Assembly (NCBI GenBank): GCA_964576615.1
Contig: CAZNUU010000003.1
Span: 6,523-70,522 of the forward strand
DNA length: 64,000 nt
Origin: an uncultured Candidatus Saccharibacteria bacterium
GTDB taxonomy: Bacteria > Patescibacteriota > Minisyncoccia > Phycocordibacterales > DATDWN01
Reading direction: 5' to 3'
This document shows, one piece after another, positions 8,137 through 42,216 of the stretch (positions are counted from its first letter, which is position 1; the number at the start of each line of letters is the position of its first letter). Below the pieces are notes generated by a model, which saw only the letters and a program-made list of their open reading frames with translations, made no database searches and was not told the origin of the DNA. Position numbers and translations under genes: made by a program.

Positions 8137-8143
8137 CCGCAAG

Positions 8144-8186
8144 AAACCGCGAGACCTAGTTCTCGGCCCGGGTCTCGCGGTTTTCC
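8144..8186 (+). terminator. Hairpin AAACCGCGAGACC...GGTCTCGCGGTTT plus T-run
   Basis: 13-bp perfect stem. Confidence 0.55.
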
Positions 8187-8199
8187 TTTGACTTATTTT

Positions 8200-8330
8200 C
8201 TAGTTTTAGTAGGCTTTCAAACTAGCGTAACAGGGCTGAGAGAGGCCCAAGTGAGGGTTAAGGAGTGCCGTGGCACGCCCTCGCCAAAGTAACGCTCCGC
8301 GTGGGAACCTCCCCTACGCGGCCTTTTTTA
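8200..8330 (+). ncRNA. Candidate GC-rich structured small RNA (or leaderless short ORF), promoter-like TTGACT-N16-TAGGCT upstream, hairpin CCGCGTGGG..CCCTACGCGG plus T-run at 3' end
   Basis: No downstream plus-strand gene; GC-rich in AT-rich context; only ORF is a 46-codon GTG frame running through the terminator. Confidence 0.25.
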
Positions 8331-17908: not shown

Positions 17909-17970
17909 ATTTATTATATTTTCCTAGTATCCTCCACCTAGCGATCTTGGACTTAGGAAAACTACTTTTA

Positions 17971-18156
17971 TTACCAGCTGGCTTTCTTTATTCCTGGTAT
18001 CTTACCTTCGTTCGCCAGTTCGCGGAAGCAAATTCGGCACAGACCAAAGTCTCTCATAAAACCTCTTTTGCGTCCACAGCGAAAACATCGGTTTGTAGCC
18101 CTAGTTCTATATTTAGGCTTCTTTAAAGCCCTTGCTTTAACACTTGTTTTCGCCAT
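17971..18156 (-). CDS. rpsZ: 30S ribosomal protein S14 type Z (zinc-binding)
   Basis: 61 aa, CxxC...CxxC. Confidence 0.9.
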
Positions 18157-18236
18157 TCTAATTAAAAATAACTCTCTCGAGTTGCGCTTTATACTAGCAA
18201 TTAGGCCATTTTAAGTCAATGCGAACGGCCGGCACC

Positions 18237-18413
18237 TTACGATGCCGGCCTTTTTCTGAGAGCCTCCTTTTCCTGGATTCCCATTCGGAACTTGTAGCGA
18301 CGATACATGAGTTTGATCTTGCTCACAGCATCGCTACGATCTTGCACTGCACGCACTGCATAGCCAACGCCTCCTGATACGATTGCGACTGTTAACGCTA
18401 CCTGAATGCTCAT
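18237..18413 (-). CDS. Small hypothetical protein, 58 aa (GC-rich cassette between rplE and rpsZ); not in ORF table
   Basis: Hand-translated MSIQVALTVAIVSGGVGYAVRAVQDRSDAVSKIKLMYRRYKFRMGIQEKEALRKRPAS; GGGAGAGG RBS; stop in loop of hairpin GGCCGGCA..TGCCGGCC (18227-18250); TTGACT-N17-TAGTAT restart promoter toward rpsZ at ~18195-18223. Confidence 0.45.
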   Translation of the reverse strand: MSIQVALTVAIVSGGVGYAVRAVQDRSDAVSKIKLMYRRYKFRMGIQEKEALRKRPAS

Positions 18414-18482
18414 GAAGAAACCTCTCCCATTTTTATATCACAAAATAAATCGTGTAAAAAGCCACATTTCTGTGGCCTTTTA

Positions 18483-20186: not shown

Positions 20187-20612
20187 TTAACTGTGGGTAG
20201 CAGAAATTACCTTGGTCTTAACTGGAAGTTTTGTCCCCGCTTTTCTAAGTGACTCTCTTGCTATCTCATCCGTTACACCGTCCACTTCAAAAATAATTCG
20301 TCCAGGCTTAACAGGAGCACAGTAGCCAAACAAATCACCCTTACCTTTTCCAAGTTTCACTTCCGCTGGTTTTTTTGTAAGAGGCATATCTGGAAAAACT
20401 CTTATCCAGATCTTGCCGGTCTTACCCAACTCTCGAGAAAGAGCTTTTCTAGCTGCTTCCAGTTGATTCGACATGATTCTGCCTCCGGTAATCGCCTTAA
20501 TTGCATGCGAGCCGAAATCAACATGCGTGCCGCGGGAAGCTACCCCAACCTTTTCCGGGTTTTTTCTAAATGTATGCCATTTTCTGTATTTAACTTTTTT
20601 TGGAAGCAGCAT
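20187..20612 (-). CDS. rplP: 50S ribosomal protein L16
   Basis: Sequence family. Confidence 0.92.
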   Translation of the reverse strand: MLLPKKVKYRKWHTFRKNPEKVGVASRGTHVDFGSHAIKAITGGRIMSNQLEAARKALSRELGKTGKIWIRVFPDMPLTKKPAEVKLGKGKGDLFGYCAPVKPGRIIFEVDGVTDEIARESLRKAGTKLPVKTKVISATHS

Positions 20613-20620
20613 AATATTTA

Positions 20621-21280
20621 TTATTTCTTAGCAAATACCTCACCTTTGTAGATCCAGACCTTTATGCCAATCCCGCCGTAAGGCAATCTGGCCTCGTACT
20701 TTGCAAATTCAACATCAGCTCGAAGCGTCTGGAGTGGAATTCTGCCTCTTTTTATTTTTTCCTTTCTGGCCATAGTTGCTCCACCAAGTCGCCCTGACAA
20801 TTCCAGCTTTACCCCTTGGACATCTCGGTTCGCCATAACTTTTTCCACGACCTGCTTTGCAACTCGCCTAAAAGGAAGTCTTTTCTCTAATCCATCTGCA
20901 ATCATTTGAACCACGATCATCGCATTCGATTCCGGAGACTTAACTTCTTTTATATCAACCTTCACTTCACCTCCAGAAGAAAGTTTGTTTTTGGACAGAA
21001 ATGACAAAATGTCGTTTTTCAGCTTTACTGCACCATCACCTGAGCGACCAATAATCATTCCAGGTCTAGATGTTTCAATAATAATTCTTAAAATTTTTTC
21101 TCCTCTCTCCATCTCGATATTTGAAACATAAAAACCTCGTAATTTCTTTTGTAAATGTTCTCGAAGCAATACATCGCTTTTCAAAAATTCTTTGTATTTT
21201 GACTTCACGCCAAACCAGCGAGATTTCCAATCTCTGATAATGCCTAGTCTGTGGGAATATGGATGGACTGTGTGTGTCAT
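20621..21280 (-). CDS. rpsC: 30S ribosomal protein S3 (start at MTHTVHP; ORF table extends upstream into rplV)
   Basis: S3 N-terminus MTHTVHPYSHRLGIIRDWKSRWF. Confidence 0.9.
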   Translation of the reverse strand: MTHTVHPYSHRLGIIRDWKSRWFGVKSKYKEFLKSDVLLREHLQKKLRGFYVSNIEMERGEKILRIIIETSRPGMIIGRSGDGAVKLKNDILSFLSKNKLSSGGEVKVDIKEVKSPESNAMIVVQMIADGLEKRLPFRRVAKQVVEKVMANRDVQGVKLELSGRLGGATMARKEKIKRGRIPLQTLRADVEFAKYEARLPYGGIGIKVWIYKGEVFAKK

Positions 21281-21281
21281 G

Positions 21282-21629
21282 TTATTTCTTTGCTTTGCCC
21301 TCAGCCAATTCAACATATATTGAACTTGTGCGCTTGCGTATAGGATGAGCACTACCCCTCGCAGCTGGTCGTCTCCGGTAAAGGATTGCTCCCCCATCAA
21401 CTGTAATTTTCTTTACAATTAAGTTCTCTGTTGGAATATCTAAATGTTTTGCATTGGCCAAAGCAGAGAGAATTAGATTTTTTAATGGCTTGGAAGCCTT
21501 TTTAGTAACGAAATCTAAGTTTACTAAAACATCAGAAACTTTTTTGCCCCGTAAGGTGTTGGCCACCAACCTCATCTTGCGAGGAGCTTGCCGGAAATCA
21601 TTTAGTAATGCGTGTGCCTTCTTTTCCAT
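21282..21629 (-). CDS. rplV: 50S ribosomal protein L22
   Basis: Sequence family. Confidence 0.9.
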   Translation of the reverse strand: MEKKAHALLNDFRQAPRKMRLVANTLRGKKVSDVLVNLDFVTKKASKPLKNLILSALANAKHLDIPTENLIVKKITVDGGAILYRRRPAARGSAHPIRKRTSSIYVELAEGKAKK

Positions 21630-21637
21630 GATAAAAA

Positions 21638-21985
21638 TTATTTCTTAGCTGCATCTGCGGTAGTTGCTTTGGCAGCTTGAGCTGCAGCTATTTCACCTTC
21701 TTTTTTAGCCTGCTCCAGTTCTTTTTGCATTCGACCTCCGTGTTTTATGAATTTCTTAGTCGGAGAAAACTCTCCTAGTCTGTGACCCACCATATCTTCC
21801 GAAACTAAAACATCTAAATGTGTTTTGCCATTATGAACCCCAAAAGTAAAACCAATCATCTCTGGAGAAATAACACAGGCTCGAGACCAAGTCTTAATAA
21901 CCCCTGTCTCCAGTGGCTTTTTGCCTTCGATCTTCTTTAGAACACGAGGATCGACATATGGACCTTTTTTACTTGAGCGTGTCAT
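21638..21985 (-). CDS. rpsS: 30S ribosomal protein S19 with Ala/Lys-rich C-terminal extension
   Basis: Sequence family. Confidence 0.9.
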
Positions 21986-22155
21986 TTTTTAATTTCTTAA
22001 AAAGAAAAACCACGATGTTAGTGGTACTTGACTGAGACTTAGCACCGCAAACAAATGAGTAAGAGGTAATGGCTTCTTACGTGGAAACATACTATACAAA
22101 TACCCCTAAAATGTCAAAGGCGGTACCAGACTTTCCGATACCGCCTATAGTGCTA

Positions 22156-22458
22156 TTACATAACATGCACAGAAGAGACCATCCCCTCGTGGACTTCCCA
22201 GGCTCGTTCTAGAAGAATGGCGACCTCGACGGTTGTCATCTCCTTTTTACGAGCAAAGACCTCCACGATCTCAACCATCTCCTGTGGTGGATTTGCTCCG
22301 AGATAGACCGCGGCCCAACCTGCGGCCCCTTTCGGATCACTGGGCGGGGTTGGCGGAGGATCAATCTCACGAATGAGCTCTGCTGCTGCACTCCGTACCC
22401 TGTCGAACAGTTCAGATCGTCTCAACTGACCCATCTGACAAGCCTCCTCTGGCACCAT
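22156..22458 (-). CDS. Hypothetical Pro-rich protein (GC-rich cassette between rpsS and rplB)
   Basis: TTGACA 22495-22500 upstream; hairpin 22119-22145 downstream, then TTGACA-N17-TAGTAT restart promoter toward rpsS. Confidence 0.45.
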   Translation of the reverse strand: MVPEEACQMGQLRRSELFDRVRSAAAELIREIDPPPTPPSDPKGAAGWAAVYLGANPPQEMVEIVEVFARKKEMTTVEVAILLERAWEVHEGMVSSVHVM

Positions 22459-22543
22459 GCCATCCAACCAGAACATTAATTAATTTCATAAAAATGTCAA
22501 AGGGCGACGTAGGTTTTCACCTAGTCGCCCCTGAAGAACCCCC

Positions 22544-22792
22544 TCACTTCACCAGACGTGCTAGCACTCTCTCGGTGCACGGCACATAGGTGATTGTGAG
22601 ACTCTGCTCTGATAGTGTGGCTCCATTGTGCGTTGCCACCATTGCGAAGCAGAGATCGGTCGTCTCGTCTTTTCCGTAGACGAGAGACTTGATGATCTCA
22701 CGCGCATTTGCTGGTTTCACCTCGGAAGCCTGCTGCGTGCAAGCAACCGAGAGAATCGCCACCAGAAAAGCCGTTACGAGCAATTTGGTCAT
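22544..22792 (-). CDS. Hypothetical small secreted lipoprotein-like protein (GC-rich cassette)
   Basis: Signal peptide ending LSVAC; AGGAGG 22800-22805. Confidence 0.55.
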   Translation of the reverse strand: MTKLLVTAFLVAILSVACTQQASEVKPANAREIIKSLVYGKDETTDLCFAMVATHNGATLSEQSLTITYVPCTERVLARLVK

Positions 22793-22811
22793 GTCTGACC
22801 CTCCTGCTACA

Positions 22812-22840
22812 ATTATACACTAATATTAGATAATAGTCAA
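22812..22840 (-). promoter_or_regulatory. Promoter TTGACT-N17-TATAAT for cassette 22544..22792, immediately after rplB terminator hairpin 22847-22872
   Basis: Read from sequence. Confidence 0.55.
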
Positions 22841-22872
22841 GTAAGAAAAGAGCCCTATGTAGGGCTCTTTTC

Positions 22873-23715
22873 TTACTTCTGCTTCCCAACTCGTCTACGA
22901 CTAACAATATATCTATTTGAATATTTCTTAGGAGTTCGAGACTTCTGCCCCTTACCGGTTGGTTTACCGTAAACTGAGATTGCTCGCCTCCTACCTCGGC
23001 CCTGCCTTTGTTCACCTCCACCGTATGGGTGATCAACTGGGTTTTGAGCAGTACCTCGAACTGTAGGACGAATGCCGAGCCAGCGACTTCTTCCAGCTTT
23101 GCCCAAATTAACCAATCTATTTTCATCGTTTGAAACATCACCAATGGATGCCCAAGCATTTTCCGAAACTTTTCTAACTTCGGTTGATGGCATTTTTATA
23201 TCAACATAACCGGCATCTTTTGCCACCACCTCCACATAGTTTCCCGCAGATCGGGCTAGCTTTGCCCCACCGCCTGGTTTTATTTCCACATTGTAAACAA
23301 ATGTACCGATATCAATATTTTTTAAAGGAAGCCTATTACCGGCTTTTCTTTCTGCTTTTTCCGAAGTGATATAGGTTTCTTCAACCCTGGCTTGTTTTGG
23401 TATAAGCACATATCTTTTTTCTCCATCTTGGTATTGAGCAAGACCGATGAAACCAGATCTATTTGGATCATACTCCACTGTTTTTAAAATATAAGGCACA
23501 TCAAATTTGTCGTATCTAAAATCCACTTCCCTGAAAAGCCTCTTGTGTCCACCACCTTTGTGACGAGTTGTAATCTCCCCAGCATTATTTCGTCCCATTG
23601 CTCTTTTGAATCCATGAGTGAGAGATTTATTTGGTTCTGAAGCAGTCAAAAAGTTGCCGAATGAAATTGTCGACATTTGCCTTCTACTTTTTGTATATGG
23701 TCTGTATCGTTTCAT
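22873..23715 (-). CDS. rplB: 50S ribosomal protein L2
   Basis: Sequence family. Confidence 0.95.
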   Translation of the reverse strand: MKRYRPYTKSRRQMSTISFGNFLTASEPNKSLTHGFKRAMGRNNAGEITTRHKGGGHKRLFREVDFRYDKFDVPYILKTVEYDPNRSGFIGLAQYQDGEKRYVLIPKQARVEETYITSEKAERKAGNRLPLKNIDIGTFVYNVEIKPGGGAKLARSAGNYVEVVAKDAGYVDIKMPSTEVRKVSENAWASIGDVSNDENRLVNLGKAGRSRWLGIRPTVRGTAQNPVDHPYGGGEQRQGRGRRRAISVYGKPTGKGQKSRTPKKYSNRYIVSRRRVGKQK

Positions 23716-23719
23716 TTTT

Positions 23720-24058
23720 TTACAAGTTTTCTATTTTTGTTCCAGGCTTAAGGTATATATATGCTTTTTTGTAACCAGATTTTTTACCCCGCTTGCCCCT
23801 GACAAAAACATTTTTAGCTGGAATAGTAACTGTGTTTATTTTAATTGGAGAGATCTTGTATTTTTCAACAAAAGCTTTTTCCACATTCGCCTTTGTAGCA
23901 CCTGGGTCAATTTCAAAAACGTACACCGAGTTTTCAGACTTAACCGTAGCTTTTTCGGTAACATGAGGACTTATTAAAATGTGAGATGTATCTTTCACCC
24001 CGTGAGATAACGTGTTGTAAGATCTTTGATTATTTTTTTGTAAAGTTTGTTTTGCCAT
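23720..24058 (-). CDS. rplW: 50S ribosomal protein L23
   Basis: Sequence family. Confidence 0.88.
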   Translation of the reverse strand: MAKQTLQKNNQRSYNTLSHGVKDTSHILISPHVTEKATVKSENSVYVFEIDPGATKANVEKAFVEKYKISPIKINTVTIPAKNVFVRGKRGKKSGYKKAYIYLKPGTKIENL

Positions 24059-24079
24059 ACTCGTTTAACAACAACTATT

Positions 24080-24832
24080 TTATCTCATGGGGTTATCTAA
24101 CTTACCAGATATTTGGGCGAGTGATTTCTCCGGATTTGAAATAACCACATATTTGTATTTCATAAGATTAAGAGGATTTAGATTGCGAATCTCATCTACG
24201 TGCATGTTAGAGAAATTTCGAAAACTTTTTTCTGTATTTACATCCTTGGAATCAAGAGCAATGTAAGCAGAATTTTTCCCTTTCCTAAGTAGAGATTCGT
24301 ACCCCTTAACCTTTGAAAGAGAAACCAAAACTTCTCTCGCTTCTTTGGTCTTTGGAGCCTTAAGAGAAAGATCGTTTACAAATAAAATCTCACCTTGTTT
24401 TAGTTTTCGAGAAAGAATAGTGTAGAGAGCCTTTGCCTTCATTTTCTTGTTTACTTTTCTGTAAAAATCTTTTTCATTGGTAGGACCGTGAGTTACACCA
24501 CCTCCAACCCAGATTGGAGATCGAATAGAACCGTGCCTGGCTCGTCCCGTACCTTTCTGTTGCCAAGGTTTTTTACCCCCCCCAGAGACATCACCTCGGC
24601 CTTTCGTATGAGCAACTGGAGTTCTTTTGGTTGATTCCATAGATGTAACCACTTGGTGAACTAAGTCAGCATTCCAAGGTAAACCAAAAACTGTAGCAGG
24701 TAATTCCAGTTTTCCGGAAGCTGTACCTTTTGTGTTATAGACTGTTGTCTCTAAGCCGTTAGTTGCTTCGGTAGCTACCTTTTTAGTTTTTCTTACTTTT
24801 GTTTCAGGAGTTTCCATAATATTTAAATTCAT
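24080..24832 (-). CDS. rplD: 50S ribosomal protein L4
   Basis: Sequence family. Confidence 0.9.
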   Translation of the reverse strand: MNLNIMETPETKVRKTKKVATEATNGLETTVYNTKGTASGKLELPATVFGLPWNADLVHQVVTSMESTKRTPVAHTKGRGDVSGGGKKPWQQKGTGRARHGSIRSPIWVGGGVTHGPTNEKDFYRKVNKKMKAKALYTILSRKLKQGEILFVNDLSLKAPKTKEAREVLVSLSKVKGYESLLRKGKNSAYIALDSKDVNTEKSFRNFSNMHVDEIRNLNPLNLMKYKYVVISNPEKSLAQISGKLDNPMR

Positions 24833-24846
24833 CTTATCTAACTGGT

Positions 24847-25458
24847 TTATCCGTTTACTTCTATTAGTGTGCCTCTTCTTCCGGGAACTGCACCCTGTAT
24901 TAAAAGTTCACCTGTCTCTGCATTTGCCGAAATAACTGTCAGACCTTTTGATGTAACTCGCTCGCCGCCCATTCTGCCGGCCATTCTCTTGCCTTTAGCC
25001 ACACGACCTCCATCACGACCACCTCCTCCGAGTGAGCCAGGCTCTCTTTCAGAATGTTTTTGACCATGAGTTCGCGGACCACCTTTAAAACCGTGTCTTT
25101 TTACGCCGCCTTGAAAACCTTTGCCTTTTGAAATACCAGAGACTGTAACTTTATCACCTGCTACAAATGAAGTTAAATCAATTATGTCCCCAATTTTAAC
25201 TGTTGGTTCCTCACTCGTTCTAAATTCTTTCAAAACTTGATAGTTACCTCCTTTCATCTGACCCTTAACTGCTTTAGAAATATTTTTTTCTTTTCTGGAA
25301 CCAAAACCGACTTGAATAGCATTATAACCATCTGTCTTTACAGTTTTAACGGCTGTAACAGTCAATGGACCAGACTGAAGAACAGTAACAGGATGAACCA
25401 GTCCTGCCTCGTCAAAAACTTGAGTCATATTTAATTTTTTTCCCAATGTGAATTTCAT
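24847..25458 (-). CDS. rplC: 50S ribosomal protein L3
   Basis: Sequence family. Confidence 0.92.
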   Translation of the reverse strand: MKFTLGKKLNMTQVFDEAGLVHPVTVLQSGPLTVTAVKTVKTDGYNAIQVGFGSRKEKNISKAVKGQMKGGNYQVLKEFRTSEEPTVKIGDIIDLTSFVAGDKVTVSGISKGKGFQGGVKRHGFKGGPRTHGQKHSEREPGSLGGGGRDGGRVAKGKRMAGRMGGERVTSKGLTVISANAETGELLIQGAVPGRRGTLIEVNG

Positions 25459-25635
25459 CTCTATTTACCTAATTTGCGGTAGCGGTTTGCGGACAGTAAT
25501 GGGGACAGATAATCCTCAACATTGCCCTTCGCTAGCTACCATAAAAAAATCGCTTATGCGATTGGAATACAGTATCAGATATCGTTTAAAAAGACAACTG
25601 CAAATTTAGCCCCAGAAATAGAGTGTTTTTTCAGA

Positions 25636-25664
25636 TTGACAAATTAGTTGATTTGTGATATTAT
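25636..25664 (+). promoter_or_regulatory. Promoter TTGACA-N17-TGaTATTAT, AGGAGG 25671-25676
   Basis: Near-identical to module at 7784-7824. Confidence 0.55.
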
Positions 25665-25682
25665 GTACACAGGAGGCAGATC

Positions 25683-25886
25683 ATGTTGGTATTGAGACTG
25701 GCCTGGTTAGTACTCGGTTTGCTCCTCATCACGGTAATTGGAGGAGCGATCGACAGTGCGACAGGCGCGGGCTTGGCACTTCTGGTGCTTTCGCCGGCTG
25801 CTCGCATGTTCCATTTCGTGGTAGGAGGCCTGTGGGGAGTGGGAATTTACTTCCTCATAACGAGGCTTCTCATCCGCAAACGCTGA
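25683..25886 (+). CDS. Small membrane protein, 2 TM (GC-rich cassette between rpsJ and rplC, antisense to the operon)
   Basis: Hairpin CGCCGGTCC-aagttt-GGACCGGCG at 25892-25915. Confidence 0.55.
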   Translation: MLVLRLAWLVLGLLLITVIGGAIDSATGAGLALLVLSPAARMFHFVVGGLWGVGIYFLITRLLIRKR

Positions 25887-25925
25887 AAGAACCCACGCCG
25901 GTCCAAGTTTGGACCGGCGATTTGT

Positions 25926-26372
25926 TTAGATAATTTTTACGTCTATGTTAACTCCACTCGGAAGTGAAAGATTTGTAAGCGCCTCCATTATTTTTGGGGT
26001 TGGATTTAAAATATCAATAAGTCTCTTATGAATTCTCATTTCAAATTGTTCCCGGGCATTTTTGTAAACAAAAGATGAACGATTGACTGTATACTTTTTA
26101 TTCTCCGTAGGAAGTGGAATTGGACCTTCAACTATTGCATCGTACCTTAGAGCTGTATCTATAATTTGCTTTACTGAAACATCTAGGATTTTATACTCAT
26201 AAGCCCTTACTCGAATTCGAAGTTTGGAGATAACATCACCTTTTGCGGGAGCTTTTGCTGCTTTAGGTGCAGGAGTTTTTGTGGCAGTTTTTGTTGCTCT
26301 TGGTTTTCTAGCTTTTGGCTCTTTTGTTTCCTCGCCTGCGCGGGCAGGTGTTGCAGCTTTCTTCGTCGGCAT
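25926..26372 (-). CDS. rpsJ: 30S ribosomal protein S10 with Lys/Ala/Pro-rich N-terminal extension (ATG 26372; ORF table begins at TTG 26381)
   Basis: S10 core ...RIRVRAYEYKILD...PLPTENKKYTVNRS... Confidence 0.88.
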   Translation of the reverse strand: MPTKKAATPARAGEETKEPKARKPRATKTATKTPAPKAAKAPAKGDVISKLRIRVRAYEYKILDVSVKQIIDTALRYDAIVEGPIPLPTENKKYTVNRSSFVYKNAREQFEMRIHKRLIDILNPTPKIMEALTNLSLPSGVNIDVKII

Positions 26373-26392
26373 AATTTTCAAATGATTAAAAG

Positions 26393-26421
26393 ATAGTAGC
26401 AGGTATTAGTTTTTTGTTCAA
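26393..26421 (-). promoter_or_regulatory. Putative S10-operon promoter TTGAAC-N17-TACTAT
   Basis: Read from sequence; short leader with no RBS. Confidence 0.5.
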
Positions 26422-26492
26422 CCCTACTAGTAGAGCATAGCTCACTACGGGGTAAAGTAAACGAATAGGCGCGCACCTTTTCAGTGCGCGCC

Positions 26493-27095
26493 CTACTTCT
26501 TCGCAGAACGTTTAGGCGCCGGCTTTCTCGGACGAAGTTGCGACTTCACGTAAGAGGCATACTTGTCCTGAAAGATGGCTACGTGAAAGTGGGGCGGACT
26601 TTTCTCTCGCGTCGCCTCAATCACCTTTAGCCCCTCGAGGTAAAGCAGGGTCTTTTCAAATTGCAGCACACACGACGGGTCGGCTGGAATTCGAAAATCG
26701 ACTGCAATGCCTGTCGGATGAACCGACTTGGGCGAAGCGTTTCGGGGTTGCTCTATCTTTGATCTCGTCGCACTAGTCACAACCAGATCACAGATCGGCG
26801 CAATTTCTTGAGCAAATCGCTCCACGAAAAGTTTCGCGACCGGCCGAACAAACGGATGAACGGCACCCTCGACCCGGTAACGACTGTTACCAGGAAGTGC
26901 CACCAGTCTCCCCTGCCTTATGAAACGATCCACATCAGCAGGAGTCTCTAGCCGGGTGAAACCCTCTCGGGTTGCATCTTTGTCCATCCGATCCACGGAC
27001 GCCTTCGAGCCTTTTAGGCTCGGTTTTTGTGCCTGTGCAGACATTGTGAAGCACAAGCACAGTGCAAGTGCACACAAAAGTTTCTGCATATTCAC
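26493..27095 (-). CDS. Secreted peptidase M15-like (VanY/YcbK-type zinc D,D-peptidase fold) (GC-rich cassette)
   Basis: Signal peptide; S-x-HPTGIAVD, E-x-x-H and H-F-H motifs; TTGACT-N17-TAAAAT, AGAGGTGA RBS. Confidence 0.45.
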   Translation of the reverse strand: MNMQKLLCALALCLCFTMSAQAQKPSLKGSKASVDRMDKDATREGFTRLETPADVDRFIRQGRLVALPGNSRYRVEGAVHPFVRPVAKLFVERFAQEIAPICDLVVTSATRSKIEQPRNASPKSVHPTGIAVDFRIPADPSCVLQFEKTLLYLEGLKVIEATREKSPPHFHVAIFQDKYASYVKSQLRPRKPAPKRSAKK

Positions 27096-27222
27096 CTCTT
27101 TTCGGATTTTACACTATTTTTGAAATAAAGTCAAATATAAAATCTAATTTTTTATAAACAAAAACCGCCGACCAATTTGGTCGGGGTCGCTCTCGTGGGG
27201 CAGAAGCCCCACGAGACAGAGT

Positions 27223-27441
27223 TTACGCTCTTTCAGGGCCAAAGGTCACTTCGACGCTGTGGTTAGTGTTGATCTCCAGGAGAAATTCTGTGAGATCTTC
27301 GGGTGAAATGCCCATTGCCCGAGCGAAGTTGTCCAGATCCCGGCACGGCTCCACCAGGATCTTTGGATTTCGACGGACGAGTTCCTCGAGGAACGCGCGG
27401 CATTGCGCAGTTACCTTGATGGTTCTGATCGCGTGTGTCAT
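27223..27441 (-). CDS. Hypothetical small protein (GC-rich cassette)
   Basis: TTGACA-N16-TATTCT, GGTGGAGG 5 nt from second ATG. Confidence 0.5.
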   Translation of the reverse strand: MTHAIRTIKVTAQCRAFLEELVRRNPKILVEPCRDLDNFARAMGISPEDLTEFLLEINTNHSVEVTFGPERA

Positions 27442-27650
27442 GAAAGCCTCCACCGATGAGAATACTTTAAAACCTTAGAATGTCAACAAAACCGCCTTTC
27501 GGCGGCTTTGTTAGATTCTTTAAGAAATTTCAATTTTTGATGCAATGCTAGGCGGACGAGGAAAATAATGTGAGCCTTATCGAGTATAAGGTGAACATTA
27601 TTTTACCGAAGTCCAACAACGCAGTGCGCTAAAATTGGAATTTCTTCTGT

Positions 27651-28844
27651 TTAGGCGATGATCTTGGTGACCACCCCTGCACCGACTGTCTTGCCCCCCT
27701 CCCTAATAGCAAATCTAGTCTTATCTTCTAGAGCAACTGGAGCCACAAGTTTAACTTTGAAAGTAACTGTATCTCCTGGCATAACCATTTCTACTCCTTC
27801 GTTAAGTGTTACATCTCCAGTTACGTCTGTTGTTCGAACGTAGAACTGTGGCTTGTAACCAGTGAAAAATGGTGTGTGTCTTCCACCTTCCTCTTTCTTA
27901 AGGATGTAAACTTCGGCCATAAATTCTGTATGAGGTGTCACTGATTTTGGCTTTGCAAGAACCTGACCTCGGGAAATGTCCTCTTTCTTAGCACCTCGGA
28001 GAAGAATTCCGGCATTGTCTCCGGCCTGACCTTGGTTAAGAGATTTGTTAAACATTTCAATACCAGTAACTGTGTATTTTTGAGTATCTCGTAGACCAAC
28101 ACACTCGATTTCCTCGCCAACATTTACGACTCCTCTTTCAATTCTTCCAGTAACTACAGTACCTCTTCCTTCAATTGAGAAGATGTCTTCAACTGGCATT
28201 AGAAACGGTTTATCTAACTCTCGAGTTGGAAGTGGGAATGCATCTAGAGCATTTGCAAGCTCAAGTATTTTCTTTGCCCACTCATCATTGTTGTCCTTCG
28301 ACTCTAGAGCCTTTAGACCTGAACCTCTTATAACTGCTGTGTTAGCACCATCGAAGCCTTGTTTTGTAAGGAGTTCTCGAACTTCTTCCTCAACCAAATC
28401 AATAAGCTCTTTGTCTGGTACCATGTCGCATTTGTTTAGAAACACGATCATTTGTGGCACACCAACTTGTTTTGCCAAAAGTACGTGTTCTCGTGTTTGT
28501 GGCATAACACCGTCAGTTGCAGCAACAACTAGAATAGCGCCGTCCATCTGGGCAGCACCAGTAATCATGTTCTTAATAAAGTCCGCGTGACCAGGCGCAT
28601 CTACGTGTGCATAGTGTCTACTTGGTGTGGAATACTCCGAGTGGTGAAGCGAGATGGTAATACCTCTTGCTTTTTCTTCCGGAGCTTTGTCGATTTGGTC
28701 AATACCTTCGACACGAGCTTCATAGCCACCGCCTTGTCGTCCTAGAACGTTTAGGATGGAAGCTGTTAATGTTGTCTTTCCATGGTCAACGTGACCGATG
28801 GTGCCCACATTCATGTGAGGCTTACTGCGATCAAACTCTGCCAT
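27651..28844 (-). CDS. tuf: Elongation factor Tu
   Basis: [22 protein letters not shown] motifs. Confidence 0.97.
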
Positions 28845-28852
28845 ATAAATGT

Positions 28853-28867
28853 TGTGACTAAGTCACA
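28853..28867. promoter_or_regulatory. 15-bp perfect palindrome TGTGACT-A-AGTCACA in tuf 5' leader, 9 nt from the start codon
   Basis: Read from sequence. Confidence 0.3.
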
Positions 28868-29260
28868 TAAGTTTAAAATTTGGCGAACTCCTTACAGGAG
28901 CTGTACACCTCTCGCATTTTGATTACAAAACGCTCAAGGTCTTGCGAAGCTACGCTTCTCACCTCGTTCCAAAATTAAACATGTTCGTCATCTTAGTGTT
29001 ACTAAGACTCCTTACCTGTTTAATTTCTCACGTCGGATTTCATCCAAATTTTAAACTCAGTGTTAATCTAAAATTATTACTAATAATGCAAACGCCATTT
29101 TGGAAATTCCAAAAACTCAATGTTCGAGAAACCTGAATTCTTAAAACTTCCTAAAACAAAAATCGCAAAAGCGACGAATAATATATTAGACAATATGTAT
29201 TAAATAGTCAACAAGAATGAAAACAGCCCCTCGCCAAGTTGGCGAAGGGCTGAACAAAAA

Positions 29261-29752
29261 CTACGACTGCAGACGGGGCAGGGGCGCTGTCTCGACGAGT
29301 ACCTGGCGAAGATTCGCGAGATACTTTTCGAACTTGCCCGCAAGCATCATCTCCTGCATTGAGGAGCTGATGTACTTGCCCTCGCGAGCGAGCCCGGCGA
29401 TCGCGTCGAGTCGTTCACCGACATCCGCCATCGAGGCGCCCAGCTTGCGCGCCTGGATCAGCTGGGGCACGAAGTAATTGGAAAGTGATCCCTCGACCAT
29501 CTCGGGATGATCGGTCTTCACGAGCCAGATCTGCCCATCGAGGTTTGCGAGGACCGCCGCCGGACTGGAATCCCGGATCGCCCGGACTTCCTTCCCGAGC
29601 TGCGCGTTCTTTCGCTCGAGTCCCCGCATCTCCTCACCCGCCTTGGCGATCGACACCGATAGCCGGTACGTCACGTATCCGGCGCCCGACGCCACCGCAA
29701 GTGCGAGAGATGCCACCACCGCGAGAACCACGAAACTTCTTCTGCTCACCAT
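29261..29752 (-). CDS. Signal-anchored coiled-coil protein (GC-rich cassette)
   Basis: TTGACA-N17-TTTAAT, AGGAGG 6 nt from ATG; terminator hairpin 29226-29253. Confidence 0.55.
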   Translation of the reverse strand: MVSRRSFVVLAVVASLALAVASGAGYVTYRLSVSIAKAGEEMRGLERKNAQLGKEVRAIRDSSPAAVLANLDGQIWLVKTDHPEMVEGSLSNYFVPQLIQARKLGASMADVGERLDAIAGLAREGKYISSSMQEMMLAGKFEKYLANLRQVLVETAPLPRLQS

Positions 29753-29808
29753 CTCTGACCTCCTTCTTATATTAAAACAAAATTAATCGTATTTGTCAAA
29801 TAGAACAT

Positions 29809-30126
29809 CTAGATACTTTGGAGCATGAGATCCTCCTTTAAGGCCTGTCTTTCTTCTATCACCAGGGAATCAAAAGTTGGAATTCTTGCCTTTAAAAAAC
29901 TCAAAACTTCGTGAGGAGTAGTTTTGTCCTGACCAAGTAAATTATCCAACTCGTCCTGTTCCCTCTCAGATAAAATATCTAGAGATCTTGTAAGAAGAGC
30001 TTGGTATAAAATTTTACCGATTCTTTCCGCAACCTCTCTTTGTTTTATGGGAGGAAGACCTTCTAGGTTCCACTCCTTAATTATTTCTTTTAAAAGAATC
30101 ATCTTAGATTTTTTATTAGTATCCAA
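29809..30126 (-). CDS. Small acidic protein, paralog of 39385..39684
   Basis: Shared C-terminal motif ...SFL+.+IP.FD.LV.E...LK. Confidence 0.5.
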   Translation of the reverse strand: MDTNKKSKMILLKEIIKEWNLEGLPPIKQREVAERIGKILYQALLTRSLDILSEREQDELDNLLGQDKTTPHEVLSFLKARIPTFDSLVIEERQALKEDLMLQSI

Positions 30127-31352
30127 GCTCTCTCAAAGACTTGCTGTTGTACTGTCTTCGCAAAAAGAAACCCTGCCTTGTATTTTTTATCCAATTTCAC
30201 ATCCGGACCTTTCTTGGTCATTGTTCCCCTTGCAATTTCTACACCGTCACAAGTAATTTTAATTACCACTGTCTCCCCATCCATTTCTTTAATAATTTCT
30301 CCCTTGTGGCCTTCAAACTCAATAGGAATTGTTTCACTTTGTGGTAAAGAAACGACACCTTCCTCATTACCTGCCTTAAACGACTCGGGTTGGTTAATTA
30401 TTGAGGTCGAAACTACTTCTGGTTCTGGAGCTGCCGGCACGGCCTCGTTTACTCTAAGACCACTAAAAGTGCTCGGGGATAGATTCTCAGGTGAGAACAA
30501 ATTAAAATCATGATTTAGTGCGACAGACAAATCGTCTGCACTCCCCTCATCTAGATTGCCCCAAGTCTTTTCAGCTTTAATAATAATTCTTTCAGATCTT
30601 GGTGAACTTCTGACCAGTTCCCGTCTTATCATTTCAATTTCACCCAGATCAAATTCTGGCCCAGGGCCCAGACTCTCTCTCTTATCTCTCCTAGTTCTGT
30701 AATATTCATCCCTAGCTGCTATTAATTCACTTGGCTCATCTTTTTGAGGCATGCTGCGAACACCACCTAGGGATTCCATCAATCTGCGAAAAACATCCTT
30801 GTTTTTTTTAGCATTCTCTAAGTAGGGACCTAGTAATTTAATGTAATTTTCTCTAGCTTTTATTAACTTTCTATCTAGATCGATGGAAGGCTCAGTTTCC
30901 GTGTTCCTGGCAACTACTCCGGGCCTAATCCCGAGAAGTGAGAGTACATCCCTCGTCTCAAGGGGCGTAATCAAAGTGGAGTTGGAGATTATTTTAACTA
31001 CCTCCTCCATAGAAGCCCTGTCTGTAATATCCCAAATTAAATTCTTTACATTTGCTCGGTCGACAGAAATCTTTTTCAAATAATCTAGAACAGGGCCTGG
31101 AGCGGAAAAAGTTGCATCTTTTTTTTCTTTCTGTTCTTTGGGTGGAAGCGGTGCTGGCTCGGAGAATTGTTTTTCAATTTTTTTATCTTGCTCCGTTTCA
31201 AGCGGAGGAAGTTCGGTTGGTTTTGCCATTGCCTCAAACCCAATTATTTTTATTGGGACTCTAGTCTCGTCTAAACCAACGGAGTCAACGACTTCGTCAA
31301 AGGCTGGAGGGTGAATACTTACTTCACTTTCGATTGGAGAAGGACTATTCAT
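30099..31352 (-). CDS. Hypothetical protein (417 aa), local similarity to 36946..39357
   Basis: PSELIAARDEYYRTRR vs PQELVDARSEYFKAKR. Confidence 0.5.
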   Translation of the reverse strand: MNSPSPIESEVSIHPPAFDEVVDSVGLDETRVPIKIIGFEAMAKPTELPPLETEQDKKIEKQFSEPAPLPPKEQKEKKDATFSAPGPVLDYLKKISVDRANVKNLIWDITDRASMEEVVKIISNSTLITPLETRDVLSLLGIRPGVVARNTETEPSIDLDRKLIKARENYIKLLGPYLENAKKNKDVFRRLMESLGGVRSMPQKDEPSELIAARDEYYRTRRDKRESLGPGPEFDLGEIEMIRRELVRSSPRSERIIIKAEKTWGNLDEGSADDLSVALNHDFNLFSPENLSPSTFSGLRVNEAVPAAPEPEVVSTSIINQPESFKAGNEEGVVSLPQSETIPIEFEGHKGEIIKEMDGETVVIKITCDGVEIARGTMTKKGPDVKLDKKYKAGFLFAKTVQQQVFERAWILIKNLR

Positions 31353-31414
31353 CCCCCAATTTTAACTTTTTTGTTTTCTCGGAGCAATTTAAAAAGCGGA
31401 AAAACTGTGTTTTT

Positions 31415-31582
31415 AAAAGCCTTTCGCAGGAGCTTAGAAAATAAACGCAAATTAGATAGCTGAAGGCATTGTTTGAGCGTAGCGAGTTTGCCGAGAAGCT
31501 AAGTCTCATTTGCGCATTATTTTCTTGAGCGACGAGAAGTTCGCTAGGCCAGCAGGCCTAGATAGATTGCTTTTAAAAATAC
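31415..31582 (+). repeat. Copy 1 of ~165-bp repeat (inverted copy at 43800-43968, ~90% identity)
   Basis: Manual alignment, e.g. AAAAGCCTTTCGCAGGAGCTTAGAAAATAAA...CTCATTTGCGCATTATTTTCTTGAGCGACGAGAAGTTCGCTAG shared. Confidence 0.6.
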
Positions 31583-33735: not shown

Positions 33736-33837
33736 TTTTTAAAACAAAAAGGCCTTGCGGCAGATAAAACTATATACTAAAAGCTTTTTTGTTGCAATTA
33801 GATGGTCGTAGTGATAGAAATTATCTAGGAGGTACTG

Positions 33838-34092
33838 ATGTTTCACCCAGATGAAGATGTCAACAGTGCAATTGTCCGTCTCATCGATGCCCTGACAAGC
33901 TGGGAACGCTCAACAGGCCGGGAATCATTTCTGGTTTTAGTTCCAGTTGAATCAGAGGAGAGGGTCGTCGTGGTTGACTCTGGCAGACTCATGGATCTGG
34001 AGTCTCTCACAGATGAACTGATCGCTGAACGTGTCTTGCAGGCTCTGGTCTGCCATGACAATCCAGAGGTTCATCGTTTTATCGATGGCTAG
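33838..34092 (+). CDS. Hypothetical acidic small protein (GC-rich cassette)
   Basis: TTGCAA-N17-TAGAAA, AGGAGG 5 nt from ATG; hairpin CTAACAGAGG..CCTTTGTTAG downstream. Confidence 0.5.
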   Translation: MFHPDEDVNSAIVRLIDALTSWERSTGRESFLVLVPVESEERVVVVDSGRLMDLESLTDELIAERVLQALVCHDNPEVHRFIDG

Positions 34093-34125
34093 GGCTCGAC
34101 CTAACAGAGGCCGGGCCTTTGTTAG

Positions 34126-36900: not shown

Positions 36901-36901
36901 A

Positions 36902-36927
36902 AAAGCGCTGATGAAAGCGCTTTTTTG
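36902..36927. terminator. Bidirectional hairpin AAAAAGCGCT-gatgaa-AGCGCTTTTTT
   Basis: Between 803-aa gene and ATPase gene; TATAAT follows. Confidence 0.45.
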
Positions 36928-36945
36928 TTATATCTTTTTGTTTAG

Positions 36946-39964: not shown

Positions 39965-40000
39965 ATAAATATTCTATGATAAAATTTTGCTGGAGGCGAC

Positions 40001-40240
40001 ATGCAAAGTGTACGGGAGCTCGTGCCCGATTTGGAAAAATGCGATAAGAACCCGGACCACCCCGGCGCGTTTTACCTGCCCCAGTACAAAACGCTTATAG
40101 AAATCGCGACGGGCCAACCAGTTACGGTGATTACTGCTGACCTGTTCGGCAAGAACCCCGAGTGCGTTTACACTCCGGAGTTGGCCGAGTGGCACCACAT
40201 TTCCAAATTCGAGCTCCCCAGCTCGACTAACACTGCTTAG
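40001..40240 (+). CDS. Hypothetical small protein (GC-rich cassette)
   Basis: GGAGG 4 nt from ATG. Confidence 0.5.
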   Translation: MQSVRELVPDLEKCDKNPDHPGAFYLPQYKTLIEIATGQPVTVITADLFGKNPECVYTPELAEWHHISKFELPSSTNTA

Positions 40241-40292
40241 TCGAGCTTTGTTAGTTAAGTAGAGAGCCCTGGACGAATCCAGGGCTCGAAGA

Positions 40293-40649
40293 CTACGAGG
40301 TTTTGATGCGGTAAATCCCAAAAACTCCCTCACCTCGGTAATCACACGTGAAATCAGCGTGCGTTCCAGAGAGCGCGTCGAGAGCTTCGTGCAACTGTCT
40401 CTCGAAGACTCTCACCGCATCGTTACCTATTTGGACGGAGTGGAAATGAACTGAGTAGATCACTGCCTCAGAGCACCCACACCGGATGAAGTTTAAAACC
40501 TGGCCTAGGGTATGCATCCAATCCTTTATGTTAGAGGTTGGATGGGCACCCGGCAAAACTACAGGTTGACCAACCGGAATCATGGTAACGTCATCACCTT
40601 GAACGATGAACTTCTGACCCTTCGCAGCGACCGGATTTTCATTGCGCAT
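40293..40649 (-). CDS. Hypothetical protein (GC-rich cassette), convergent with 40001..40240
   Basis: TTGACT-N16-TAAGGT; shared hairpin GAGCCCTGGA-cgaa-TCCAGGGCTC 40266-40289. Confidence 0.5.
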   Translation of the reverse strand: MRNENPVAAKGQKFIVQGDDVTMIPVGQPVVLPGAHPTSNIKDWMHTLGQVLNFIRCGCSEAVIYSVHFHSVQIGNDAVRVFERQLHEALDALSGTHADFTCDYRGEGVFGIYRIKTS

Positions 40650-40943
40650 CGTACTTCTCCACGCTTTACGCGCATCACCTGACTCGTGATTGAGTCTAGG
40701 CTAGGAATCTAAAGTCACCTTACAGCTAAATATTAAAAAGTCAAAATCAAAACCCGCTTTCGGCGGCCAGGTGCTATTATATTTATTTTTGCGTGCTAAA
40801 ATCTGAGCAAAATTTTTTGCTCAGAGGATTTTTGCTCAAGGTCGCGTATAAATTTAAAACTGGAGTCGGAGATGTACATTAGTACATTGACGATCCCAGT
40901 TTTAAATTTAGACGTTAGAGATTGAGTAAAAAGACCTGAGCAA

Positions 40944-42110: not shown

Positions 42111-42216
42111 TAAATATATAACAGTATTAATCGATCTGCAAGAAAAGTTTTCCACCTTTATAAAGAATCACCCAGCAGCTTTTTGAGCGGCTGGGTGACA
42201 GAAGGACCAGGTGAGA

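Follow-up and report, generated by a model that had tools for sequence, protein, structure and literature searches.

SD-led accessory cassettes among SD-less core genes: two apparent regimes of translation initiation in one bacterial chromosome

Introduction

The gene cassettes described here find their closest counterparts in morons, defined in lambdoid, HK97 and Mu-like phages (PMC4378225), and in the mixed initiation of Bacteroidia, where the Flavobacterium exception to starts without a Shine-Dalgarno (SD) sequence is essentially rpsU, plus the prfB frameshift site (PMC7797042, PMC9976891, PMC13000453, PMC13000457). Among Parcubacteria, the anti-SD motif has been detected in only 48% (Tsurumaki et al. 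2022, PMC9297842). We analysed a 64-kb stretch of DNA, hereafter the window, from a cell that appears to run two ways of starting protein synthesis. The explanation that we favour, with a probability of about 0.6, is that moron-like autonomous accessory cassettes, which need SD pairing, reside in a lineage whose core genes initiate without it.

Results

The native genes framing the cassettes of the ribosomal-protein and tuf region have no SD, and the same is true of two genes further along the window:

20621-28844, minus strand: native SD-less genes, GC3 0.24-0.40, upstream A/T-rich and G-poor
Within it, minus strand: rpsC; rplV 21282-21629; rpsS 21638-21985; rplB 22873-23715; rplW 23720-24058; rplD 24080-24832; rplC 24847-25458; rpsJ 25926-26372; tuf 27651-28844
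59407-60567: nusA (Pfam identification), SD-less
62587-63657: tig (Pfam identification), SD-less

Native leaders contain 11.5% G, and 50-63% A at -14 to -5. Core gene starts are G-depleted, A-rich and weakly folded or leaderless, in all 80 related loci too, where the ribosomal-protein genes carry no SD at any GC. Predicted folding over -15 to +35 is -3.9 kcal/mol for natives versus -9.6 for cassettes (p = 1.5e-8).

Strong SDs (anti-SD duplex of -7 kcal/mol or stronger) precede 13/19 ORFs of high GC3 (>= 0.5) versus 2/70 of low GC3 (< 0.45) in the 64-kb window (Fisher p = 1.7e-9), and duplex strength differs between the classes as well (Mann-Whitney p = 8e-9). Both were handled identically: ORFs were picked greedily by length, and each was scored by its strongest anti-SD duplex at any of its first 15 in-frame starts. 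Of the six high-GC ORFs without a strong SD, three are wrong-strand picks, whose partner on the opposite strand does carry one. GGAGG-N3-9-ATG was seen 27 times, against 10.4 +/- 3.4 expected from dinucleotide shuffles, and the composite of TTGACN, TAnnnT, SD and start 14 times, against 0.04 expected from 200-nt block shuffles, always at a cassette. The SD dichotomy is confirmed as real and far above chance.

These counts bear out an initial annotation which had contrasted SD-less native genes with genes led by an exact AGGAGG at optimal spacing. The motif lies where it had been placed at 7819-7824 (plus strand), 22800-22805 (minus) and 25671-25676 (plus), and the copy put near 29760 was found at 29759-29764 (minus); the one given as 2016-2021 exists, one base away at 2017-2022 (minus), and belongs to the minus-strand ORF 1733-2011. 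All five are 5-7 nt 5' of the ATG of a GC-rich ORF. As had also been proposed, rplB, rplW, rplD, tuf, nusA and tig have no SD within 15 nt. For secY, an AGGTGG about 14 nt upstream is the only SD-like string, and ftsH, whose start codon is ambiguous, shows no SD. The refutation proposed at the time, SDs equally common on low-GC native genes, was put to the test and speaks for the dichotomy: these genes lack SDs in the window and in the 80 related loci.

The SD-led cassettes number about 20 and extend across the whole window, beyond 20621-29752. Those of the ribosomal-protein and tuf region are given here with their putative signals, whose function is judged from consensus matches:

22544-22875, minus: cassette A, rplB/rpsS gap, promoter scan 11/12; -35 TTGACT 22840-22835, -10 TATAAT 22817-22812, SD AGGAGG 22805-22800, ATG 22792; rplB terminator hairpin (~22870-22845) 5' of its promoter; 82-aa product with lipoprotein-like signal peptide, singleton cluster, no Pfam or PHROG match
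22089-22530, minus: cassette B; -35 TTGACA 22500-22495 just after the cassette A terminator hairpin (22530-22502), SD AGAGGAGG 22450-22443, ATG 22434, 92-aa ORF 22156-22434, terminator hairpin 22144-22118, then 3' a restart promoter TTGACA-N17-TAGTAT for rpsS, 22117-22089
25636-25919, plus: cassette C, rpsJ/rplC gap, antisense to the operon; promoter TTGACA-N17-TATTAT 25636-25664, SD AGGAGG 25671-25676, 67-aa membrane ORF 25683-25886, bidirectional terminator shared with rpsJ 25896-25919
26467-27134, minus: cassette D, tuf/rpsJ gap; promoter TTGACT-N17-TAAAAT 27134-27106, SD AAGAGGTGA 27100-27092, ORF 26493-27089 for a 198-aa secreted DUF5715 (M15-like) protein (Pfam DUF5715), terminator 26493-26467
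27168-27486, minus: cassette E, tuf/rpsJ gap; promoter TTGACA-N16-TATTCT 27486-27459, SD GGTGGAGG 27454-27447, 72-aa ORF 27223-27441, then terminator hairpins 27214-27192 and 27184-27168
29224-29799, minus: cassette F; -35 TTGACA 29799-29794, SD AAGGAGGT including AGGAGG 29764-29759, 163-aa ORF 29261-29752 with N-terminal transmembrane helix (GC 0.62, GC3 0.77), terminator with 13-bp stem 29252-29224, then TTGACT at 29211
18227-18460, minus: cassette in the rplE/rpsH gap; SD GGGAGAGG, 58-aa transmembrane ORF 18237-18413, terminator 18227-18250, then TTGACT-N17-TAGTAT 18219-18191

The protein of cassette F is a total ORFan among 5.8e9 proteins, and the cassette has no match in viral contigs. 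The remaining cassettes are:

1320-4400, both strands: five or six cassettes clustered next to tRNA-Ile, the ORFs below all singleton clusters without Pfam or PHROG match
1352-1636, plus: ORF, SD AAGAGGTGA
1733-2011, minus: ORF, SD AGGAGG 2022-2017
2587-3021, minus: ORF, SD GGAGGG
3088-3435, minus: ORF, SD AGAGGGGGTG, GTG start
4071-4373, minus: ORF, SD GGAGGG
3977-4180, minus: ORF overlapping the preceding one, SD AGGAGGG
7780-8185, plus: cassette directly after tmRNA; promoter TTGACA...TATTAT, SD AGGAGG 7819-7824, 101-aa ORF 7831-8136, terminator hairpin ~8147-8182
33769-34125, plus: cassette between fusA and a TraG-like gene; SD TAGGAGGT (AGGAGG 33827-33832), 84-aa ORF 33838-34092, terminator 34101-34125
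39975-40760: convergent cassette pair 3' of rpsG, terminator hairpins back to back; 118-aa ORF 40293-40649, minus, SD GTGGAG; 79-aa ORF 40001-40240, plus, SD GGAGG
42190-42840, minus: cassette between an M50 peptidase gene and rpsL; SD GTGAGGTGA, 185-aa ORF 42217-42774, GC3 0.64
43984-46740, both strands: three further cassettes; membrane protein 43984-44220, minus, SD TAAGGAGGA; XRE-type HTH 44568-44816, minus, SD GGGAGGT; ORF 46431-46730, plus, SD TAGGAGGT, GC 0.60

A common layout emerges, in which a TTGACx-N16-18-TAnnnT promoter leads into a leader that is AT-rich and very short (about 12-18 nt, judging by the distance between -10 and start); the SD and a GC-rich ORF follow, then a hairpin terminator, likewise GC-rich, and often a promoter that restarts transcription for the native gene downstream. 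The SD consensus, A/GGAGGT, is the complement of the canonical 16S tail and stands 4-9 nt from the start (mode 5). The ORFs are small (58-198 aa, GC 0.50-0.62) and mostly ORFans, and their products are often small membrane or secreted proteins; since most cassettes are singletons, coding status rests on signals and gene calls. GC runs at 0.22-0.34 in the promoter, rises at the SD and ATG and falls about 40 nt past the stop, so that the promoter and leader DNA abutting the ORFs is as AT-rich as host intergenic DNA. Between 17 and 35 kb, cassettes own the strongest terminators and all but one of the top six promoter matches. The sites occupied are permissive junctions, some of them inside the S10/spc ribosomal-protein operon.

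Nearly all relatives have the same junctions expanded. Relatives carry other SD-led ORFs there; the rpsG site of one locus (L088), for instance, is taken by a response regulator gene, likewise SD-led and GC-rich. SDs were found at 40% of gap ORFs in the closest loci and at 16-25% in distant ones, and unrelated studies have yielded MAGs and metagenomes with the same split between SD-less core and SD-led gap genes. Protein homologues exist for three cassette families. Orthologues of the cassette D DUF5715 protein, 51-52% identical, occupy the same tuf/rpsJ site in a JGI contig and in L087; the gene in L087 (51%) has kept promoter and SD, and its GC3 is 0.45 versus 0.29-0.36 for tuf, rpsJ, rplC, rplD, rplW and rplB. 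The 185-aa protein beside rpsL has about 52 distant homologues of ~180 aa each, and L088 has a 49% identical orthologue in the same position, which comes with TTGACT, AGGAGG and a terminator, at GC3 0.60 versus 0.30-0.33 for its neighbours. Core proteins flanking these two orthologues are 82-91% identical. The third family, that of ORF 1733-2011, has a 34% homologue at rplB/rpsS in L094.

Discussion

Two same-site orthologues at about 50% identity keep promoter, SD and raised GC3, which argues that the signals are maintained in the lineage and are not simple donor relics. The source is a Parcubacteria chromosome (Paceibacteria, Zambryskibacteria/Nomurabacteria-like) of the small symbiotic type, apparently with two initiation regimes. 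Core genes would start without an SD through A-rich, G-depleted, weakly folded leaders, or else on leaderless mRNAs (ATG 6-7 nt after a -10 box) or by coupling within operons. The accessory genome would consist of self-contained moron-like cassettes, each with a sigma-70-type -35/-10 promoter, a canonical SD, a GC-rich ORF and an intrinsic terminator, lodged in hot spots that are probably class-wide (rplB/rpsS, rpsJ/rplC, tuf/rpsJ, rplE/rpsH, and the vicinity of rpsL/rpsG, of tRNA and of tmRNA). Cassette content would turn over fast, probably by DNA uptake and recombination in the conserved flanks; the window contains competence-type genes (comEC, and pilB/pilC of a type IV pilus). As GC-rich ORFs make for strongly folded initiation regions, the unstructured-leader route would be closed to them and SD/anti-SD pairing needed for 30S recruitment. 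The SD would then be a signal kept by selection in the host, implying an accessible anti-SD; we infer this accessibility, given that the motif was found in under half of Parcubacteria. Structure brought about by high GC cannot alone explain the SD, because in some relatives (L005) SD-led gap ORFs are barely GC-richer than the core. Nor does a need for SDs in GC-rich genes account for the high GC3 of long-resident orthologues, which may instead stem from recurrent replacement out of a GC-rich pool.

It is unlikely, although the composition invites the idea, that the cassettes are recent imports from a high-GC, SD-using bacterium, plasmid or phage, with SDs and promoters as leftovers. Cassette ORFs reach GC3 0.77 at a GC of 0.50-0.62, versus about 0.3 and 0.41 in the host, and their proteins, judged by eye, seem rich in Ala, Arg and Gly; they occupy hot spots and the neighbourhood of tRNA and tmRNA genes in a window with competence genes, named DUF5715 relatives are mostly from GC-rich Gemmatimonadota, the hot spot used by one family varies between genomes, and the cassettes are singletons. 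However, the GC shift follows the limits of ORF plus terminator and leaves promoter and leader host-like, the same architecture exists in L005, whose gap ORFs are not GC-rich, and the same-site orthologues have kept SD and GC3 through ~50% protein divergence. No donor, phage or plasmid relative was found. These data contradict any recent import of donor signals as a whole, and the ORF bodies may come from a different high-GC source. That source was one of the options first raised for this locus; the other, selective use of the SD by the host, fits best, because the split recurs in relatives, the SD outlasts such divergence and the leaders are AT-rich like the host's.

A ribosome that is SD-blind by default, its anti-SD sequestered as in Bacteroidia, with the cassettes translated by specialised ribosomes or under particular conditions, strikes us as hardly probable. 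Core genes do show a Bacteroidia-like G depletion with upstream adenines, bS21-less Flavobacterium ribosomes selectively translate SD-led rpsU (PMC9976891, PMC13000453), and the SD class is a coherent accessory gene set; but bS21, a key sequestering protein, is reported to be frequently absent from Parcubacteria (PMC9297842), and the window holds no sign of a switch. Far less credible is an artefact, be it a chimeric assembly, a binning error, a synthetic construct or SD-like strings arising by chance in GC-rich islands that are non-coding or encode RNA, even if the modular layout looks designed and most ORFs lack homologues. Native-cassette junctions reappear with 100% identity in independent Logan unitigs of SRR12313479 and SRR12313480: L083 equals window 20205-22508 and links cassette B to rpsS-rplV-rpsC-rplP, L084 and L085 (two runs) place cassette C between rpsJ and rplC, L084 and L086 contain cassette E, and L001 and L002 cross the junction of cassette F with its native neighbour. 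Independent contigs from two runs exclude the design once suggested, and chimerism or artefact is largely refuted. The layout recurs in unrelated studies, SDs stand at fixed spacing in AT-rich leaders, composite sites far outnumber those in shuffles, and the islands hold three families with protein homologues and no Rfam match.

The preferred reading of autonomous, SD-dependent cassettes can be set against known systems. Like phage morons, the cassettes are usually single ORFs with their own promoter and terminator, placed between genes whose counterparts lie side by side in related genomes, of a base composition unlike their neighbours and without recognisable recombinase targets. Unlike morons, they sit in a cellular chromosome, including its S10/spc operon, rather than in phage or prophage DNA; their GC exceeds that of the host, a restart promoter lies 3' of many, and some persist as same-site orthologues. 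The SD-less core with A-rich, G-poor upstream regions and few strong-SD genes recalls Bacteroidia, but the phylum differs, the SD class is made up of some 20 accessory genes in 64 kb, and anti-SD sequestration is hypothetical here. The anti-SD loss reported in Parcubacteria (PMC9297842) concerns the same superphylum and is consistent with SD-less core genes; that report dealt with rRNA only, without SD-led accessory genes, and the conserved SDs point to a functional anti-SD in this sub-lineage. Small orphan ORFs, deviant composition, few sites and rapid turnover among relatives are shared with integron cassettes and chromosomal hot spots of horizontal transfer. Unlike integrons, the window has no attC-like repeats, shared boundaries or integrase, and whereas integron cassettes are usually promoterless, each unit here has a promoter of its own.

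Results

Start signals of core and cassette genes

When all ORFs were handled alike (greedy longest ORFs, scored by their best pairing with ACCUCCUUA at any of the first 15 in-frame start codons), a strong Shine-Dalgarno (SD) sequence preceded 13 of the 19 ORFs with GC3 of at least 0.5 and only 2 of the 70 with GC3 below 0.45 (Fisher p = 1.7e-9). Three of the apparent misses among the GC-rich ORFs are wrong-strand picks, and the partner ORF of each has an SD. The motif GGAGG-N3-9-ATG is 2.6-fold more frequent in the window than in dinucleotide shuffles. The initial annotation had contrasted native genes lacking an SD with cassette genes carrying a perfect one, a dichotomy that is borne out and that extends over the whole window and, in 80 genomes, over the clade. 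Four of its five AGGAGG sites lie where it placed them, and the fifth, before a minus-strand ORF, is shifted by one base to 2017-2022. It was also right that rplB, rplW, rplD, tuf, nusA and tig have no SD; secY too lacks a proper one, although an AGGTGG is present there at bad spacing.

The SD of the cassettes (the small, GC-rich accessory ORFs lying in gaps between native genes) has the consensus A/GGAGGT, 4-9 nt before the start codon (mode 5), with duplex energies reaching -7 to -12.4 kcal/mol. Rich in purines, able to pair with a canonical 16S 3' end and placed 4-9 nt upstream, the motif matches the canonical SD-led arrangement. Native starts, at -14 to -5, have 11.5% G and 50-63% A. In adk, tpiA and the ORF at 51162, a -10 box stands only 6-7 nt before the ATG, which suggests that native genes such as these may be expressed from leaderless mRNAs. 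Among low-GC genes, a strong SD-like motif was seen only in two, both of the DNA-uptake machinery:

46770-48338, minus strand: comEC, AAAGGAG 9 nt before ATG
57494-59248, minus strand: pilB (pilus ATPase), GGGAG 12 nt before ATG

Gene content and authenticity of the sequence

The 64-kb window (41% GC) carries on its minus strand rpsL-rpsG, fusA, tuf, the S10-spc ribosomal-protein cluster, secY, adk and map; recG, ftsH, smpB/tmRNA, RNase J, comEC, recJ, pgk, tpiA, type IV pilus genes, nusA and tig are also present. L15 directly follows S5, and the lack of L30 between them is a hallmark of CPR bacteria (PMC9297842). The nearest rplB relatives (82-85% identity) come from MAGs labelled Zambryskibacteria, Paceibacterota or Patescibacteria. 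The rpsG-fusA interval (34126-39357, minus strand) holds two large genes of host-like low GC: one, in an unusual place for a gene resembling those of conjugation or type IV coupling, encodes a 924-aa protein whose C-terminus weakly matches TraG/TraD, and the other an 803-aa protein without a Pfam match.

Cassette proteins occur verbatim on one 79,565-bp NCBI contig and in the Logan assemblies of SRR12313479 and SRR12313480. Across native-cassette junctions, the window is matched at 100% identity by four Logan contigs, as follows (c72 and c67 are cassette ORFs of 72 and 67 aa; DUF5715 is a cassette protein):

29088-31439
20205-22508
tuf-c72-DUF5715-rpsJ-c67-rplC

It follows that this is a natural sequence with correct joins. 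Design, which the initial annotation had entertained as a source of the cassettes, is excluded, and so is artefact. One Logan contig ends at 22508, within the terminator separating cassettes A (22544-22875, minus strand) and B (22089-22530, minus strand), and two others end at 29088-29102, about 160 nt beyond cassette F (29224-29799, minus strand). The cassette A protein (22544-22792) is on record from NCBI only and not from Logan. These breaks and this NCBI-only record may reflect strain-level presence/absence variation at cassette borders.

Anatomy and composition of the cassettes

The cassettes comprise about 20 ORFs of 58-198 aa, with GC of 0.50-0.62 and GC3 of 0.5-0.77, in intergenic gaps throughout the window; their native neighbours have a GC of about 0.40 and a GC3 of about 0.3. 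Downstream of the preceding gene's hairpin terminator comes a predicted promoter, TTGAC(A/T), 16-18 nt, TAnnnT, followed by 5-8 nt, the SD, 4-9 nt, the ATG, the GC-rich ORF and a GC-rich hairpin with a T-run. After many cassettes a further consensus match to a TTGACx promoter would restart the next native gene (e.g. 22117-22089 before rpsS). The composite motif of promoter, SD and start was seen 14 times, always at cassettes, against 0.04 in block shuffles. Across 17-35 kb, five of the six best promoter consensus matches fall at cassettes, as do the strongest predicted terminators. Along a cassette, GC is 0.22-0.34 across the promoter, rises sharply at the SD/ATG and returns about 40 nt past the stop; the deviant composition is thus limited to ORF and terminator, and the control region resembles intergenic DNA of the host. 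Predicted folding of -15 to +35 is stronger in cassettes than in native genes (-9.6 versus -3.9 kcal/mol, p = 1.5e-8).

Two pairs of cassette terminators have near-identical hairpins, 1687-1710 and 3080-3103 (GAACCGGGCT...AGCCCGGTT) and 27487-27506 and 40748-40767 (GCCGCCGAAAGGCGGTTTTG), although the ORFs preceding them are unrelated, and these twins may reflect convergence or a common origin of terminator modules. At 4071-4373 (Zn-ribbon-like, 100 aa) and 3977-4180 (67 aa) stand two GC-rich minus-strand ORFs that share about 110 nt in different reading frames, with GGAGGG/AGGAGGG before each; possible readings are overlapping genes, a gene with a frameshift, or an internal start. On the plus strand, at 8188-8330, a TTGACT-N16-TAGGCT promoter leads into a GC-rich stretch of about 110 nt without an ORF, closed at 8298-8329 by a strong hairpin and T6, with the next gene on the opposite strand. 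It may be a small RNA, although Rfam yields nothing for it even at E <= 1 and the z-score of its folding reaches only -1.7. That the GC islands in general are structured RNAs was rejected, given the lack of Rfam matches.

Cassette products and searches for their origin

Pfam recognizes only a secreted DUF5715 (M15-like) protein and an XRE-type HTH among the cassette products; the remaining proteins have no Pfam or PHROG match, the PHROG search yielding just weak HTH matches. Several have signal peptides or transmembrane helices. The ten proteins that we looked up each fall in a 90% cluster of one or two members, and the 163-aa protein of cassette F, at 62% GC, has no homologue in 5.8e9 proteins. 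Two scans of viral contigs for a donor found nothing. The cassettes are mutually non-paralogous, and their borders show no common att-like sites or repeats, only a few similar terminator hairpins, which led us to reject integron- or IS-type mobility. A cluster of five or six cassettes directly adjoins a tRNA-Ile gene (3493-3567, minus strand) and thereby suggests tRNA-adjacent insertion. The anticodon of this tRNA, TAT (UAU in the RNA), is uncommon for bacteria.

Insertion junctions in relatives

We compared the window with 80 species-representative genomes of the clade and 80 metagenome loci. Ribosomal-protein genes lack an SD in all 80 genomes at any genome GC (0.32-0.63), so that core initiation without SD characterizes the class. 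The junctions that hold cassettes in the window are widened in nearly all of these Paceibacteria genomes, with mostly unrelated genes inserted at four sites of the normally compact tuf-S10-spc cluster:

21986-22872: rplB-rpsS junction
25459-25925: rpsJ-rplC junction
26373-27650: tuf-rpsJ junction
17909-18482: rplE-rpsH junction

The tuf-rpsJ and rpsJ-rplC gaps (1281 and 470 nt in the window) are below 30 nt in many relatives, and the rplB-rpsS gap has other content in each, with lengths from 55 to 8854 nt. Because widening is nearly universal and the inserts are mostly unrelated, the junctions act, across the class, as hot spots for insertion within a syntenic marker region. The variation of gap genes from genome to genome indicates rapid turnover. 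The family of the ORF at 1733-2011, which lies near tRNA-Ile in the window and at rplB-rpsS in one metagenome locus, indicates movement between hot spots. Homologues of window cassette proteins were absent from the 80 genome loci and numbered one in the 80 metagenome loci. No relative more than 90% identical, in which empty-site alleles might be seen, was found, the best rplB match being 85%.

Of the gap ORFs, 40% have a strong SD in the closest relatives; the share falls to 16-25% in more distant relatives, and for ribosomal-protein genes at similar GC it is about 0-10%. The GC3 of gap ORFs is usually above that of the core, and the full pattern of promoter and SD recurs in relatives' loci L003-L006, L087 and L088.

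Two cassettes are long-term residents, judging from orthologues at the same sites. The DUF5715 gene occupies the tuf-rpsJ gap of the window, and its orthologues stand there in L087 (51% identity) and a JGI contig (52%). For a 185-aa family the site is the gap separating the M50 peptidase gene from rpsL, shared by the window and L088 (49%); the flanking core proteins are 82-91% identical. Both the L087 and L088 orthologues keep a TTGACx promoter and an SD (CAAGGAGAG; TAGGAGGC). Their GC3 is 0.45 in L087, versus 0.29-0.36 for tuf, rpsJ, rplC, rplD, rplW and rplB, and 0.60 in L088, versus 0.30-0.33 in the neighbours. The high GC3 that these residents retain might be due to selection, to GC-biased conversion where recombination has hot spots, or to alleles being replaced repeatedly from a GC-rich pool.

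In the rpsJ-rplC gap, the window and three relatives have a small membrane-protein gene antisense to the operon:

25683-25886, plus strand: window
2348-2650, minus strand: L004
7594-7914, minus strand: L005
about 3140-3412, minus strand: L003

Each has a promoter and an SD, and no mutual sequence similarity is detectable; position and type are conserved without conservation of sequence. A perfect hairpin, GTGACTTAGTCAC, lies at 28853-28867 (minus strand), 9-10 nt before the tuf ATG (start 28844), and is kept with one change in L087 (gtgacttaatcac, about 3820-3850). A role as translational operator or leader element is conceivable for it in the tuf mRNA, which has no SD.

Discussion

The initial annotation left two explanations for this partition, selective use of the SD by the host ribosome or derivation of the cassettes from an SD-using, high-GC source. 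Our data favour the former. The SD is retained in orthologues whose proteins have half diverged, and it sits in AT-rich leaders like those of the host; it is therefore most simply read as a signal that selection has preserved in this lineage, and this implies a usable anti-SD. The route open to core genes, loading on an unstructured, A-rich leader, would be closed to the GC-rich mRNAs of cassettes, and, since their starts are predicted to fold more strongly, they would benefit from SD anchoring. The second explanation is partly possible for the ORF bodies, whose composition may be a legacy of a donor; it fits less well with the control regions, which look host-like. Acquisition could plausibly proceed by DNA uptake, for which comEC and pili are present in the window, and recombination in conserved flanks.

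Whether the anti-SD is available bears on two further readings. According to Tsurumaki et al. (PMC9297842), no more than 48% of Parcubacteria 16S genes have the CCTCCT motif, and about half of Parcubacteria have lost the anti-SD. The searchable literature did not show which Parcubacteria phyla lack uL1 and the anti-SD, and we found no 16S rRNA in the window (Rfam) or in the more than 160 loci compared (fuzzy motif search). Ribosomes of the lineage could be blind to the SD by default, their anti-SD lost or sequestered, and the GC-rich, sigma-70-consensus cassettes would form a set translated separately, legible solely to specialised ribosomes or in a particular state or, at the extreme, meant for expression in an SD-using partner cell instead of the symbiont. 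We regard this as improbable. Conditional use of the SD by specialised ribosomes, of the kind seen in Bacteroidia, we hold to be similarly unlikely. In Bacteroidia the anti-SD is sequestered by bS21, bS18 and bS6, and the window holds no genes for them.

We found no report in the searchable literature of initiation signals partitioned between core and accessory genes in CPR bacteria. Confirmation would make this a clear natural example of a single cell whose genes are divided, core from accessory, between two mechanisms of initiation, and an experimentally testable handle on how newly acquired genes are expressed in SD-poor lineages such as CPR bacteria and Bacteroidia. It bears on whether the Parcubacteria reported without an anti-SD truly lack it, and it poses the question of why accessory genes remain rich in GC within an AT-rich, reduced genome. 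In practice, gene callers trained on a single RBS model would mis-start one of the two classes, and the layout of the cassettes supplies expression signals ready for use in future genetic work on CPR bacteria. The ribosomal-protein operon is often assumed to be compact and syntenic and is used for phylogenomics and binning, uses for which insertion hot spots within it matter.

Among known systems, integron cassette arrays have attC/attI sites and an integrase, whereas here there are no border repeats and no integrase among the annotated genes, and the cassettes are scattered across 64 kb on both strands. The regime of the core genes is closest to that of Bacteroidia (PMC7797042, PMC9976891, PMC13000453), with the SD lacking window- and clade-wide and adenine enriched upstream. 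The architecture of the cassettes is closest to that of phage morons (PMC4378225), but in a cellular chromosome: their flanks are ribosomal-protein genes, tuf, fusA, ftsH and tmRNA rather than a phage or prophage, and they have no PHROG or viral-contig relatives. Like morons, they are placed between genes that are adjacent in related genomes, differ in base composition from their neighbours and, on consensus matches, have their own promoter upstream and their own terminator downstream.
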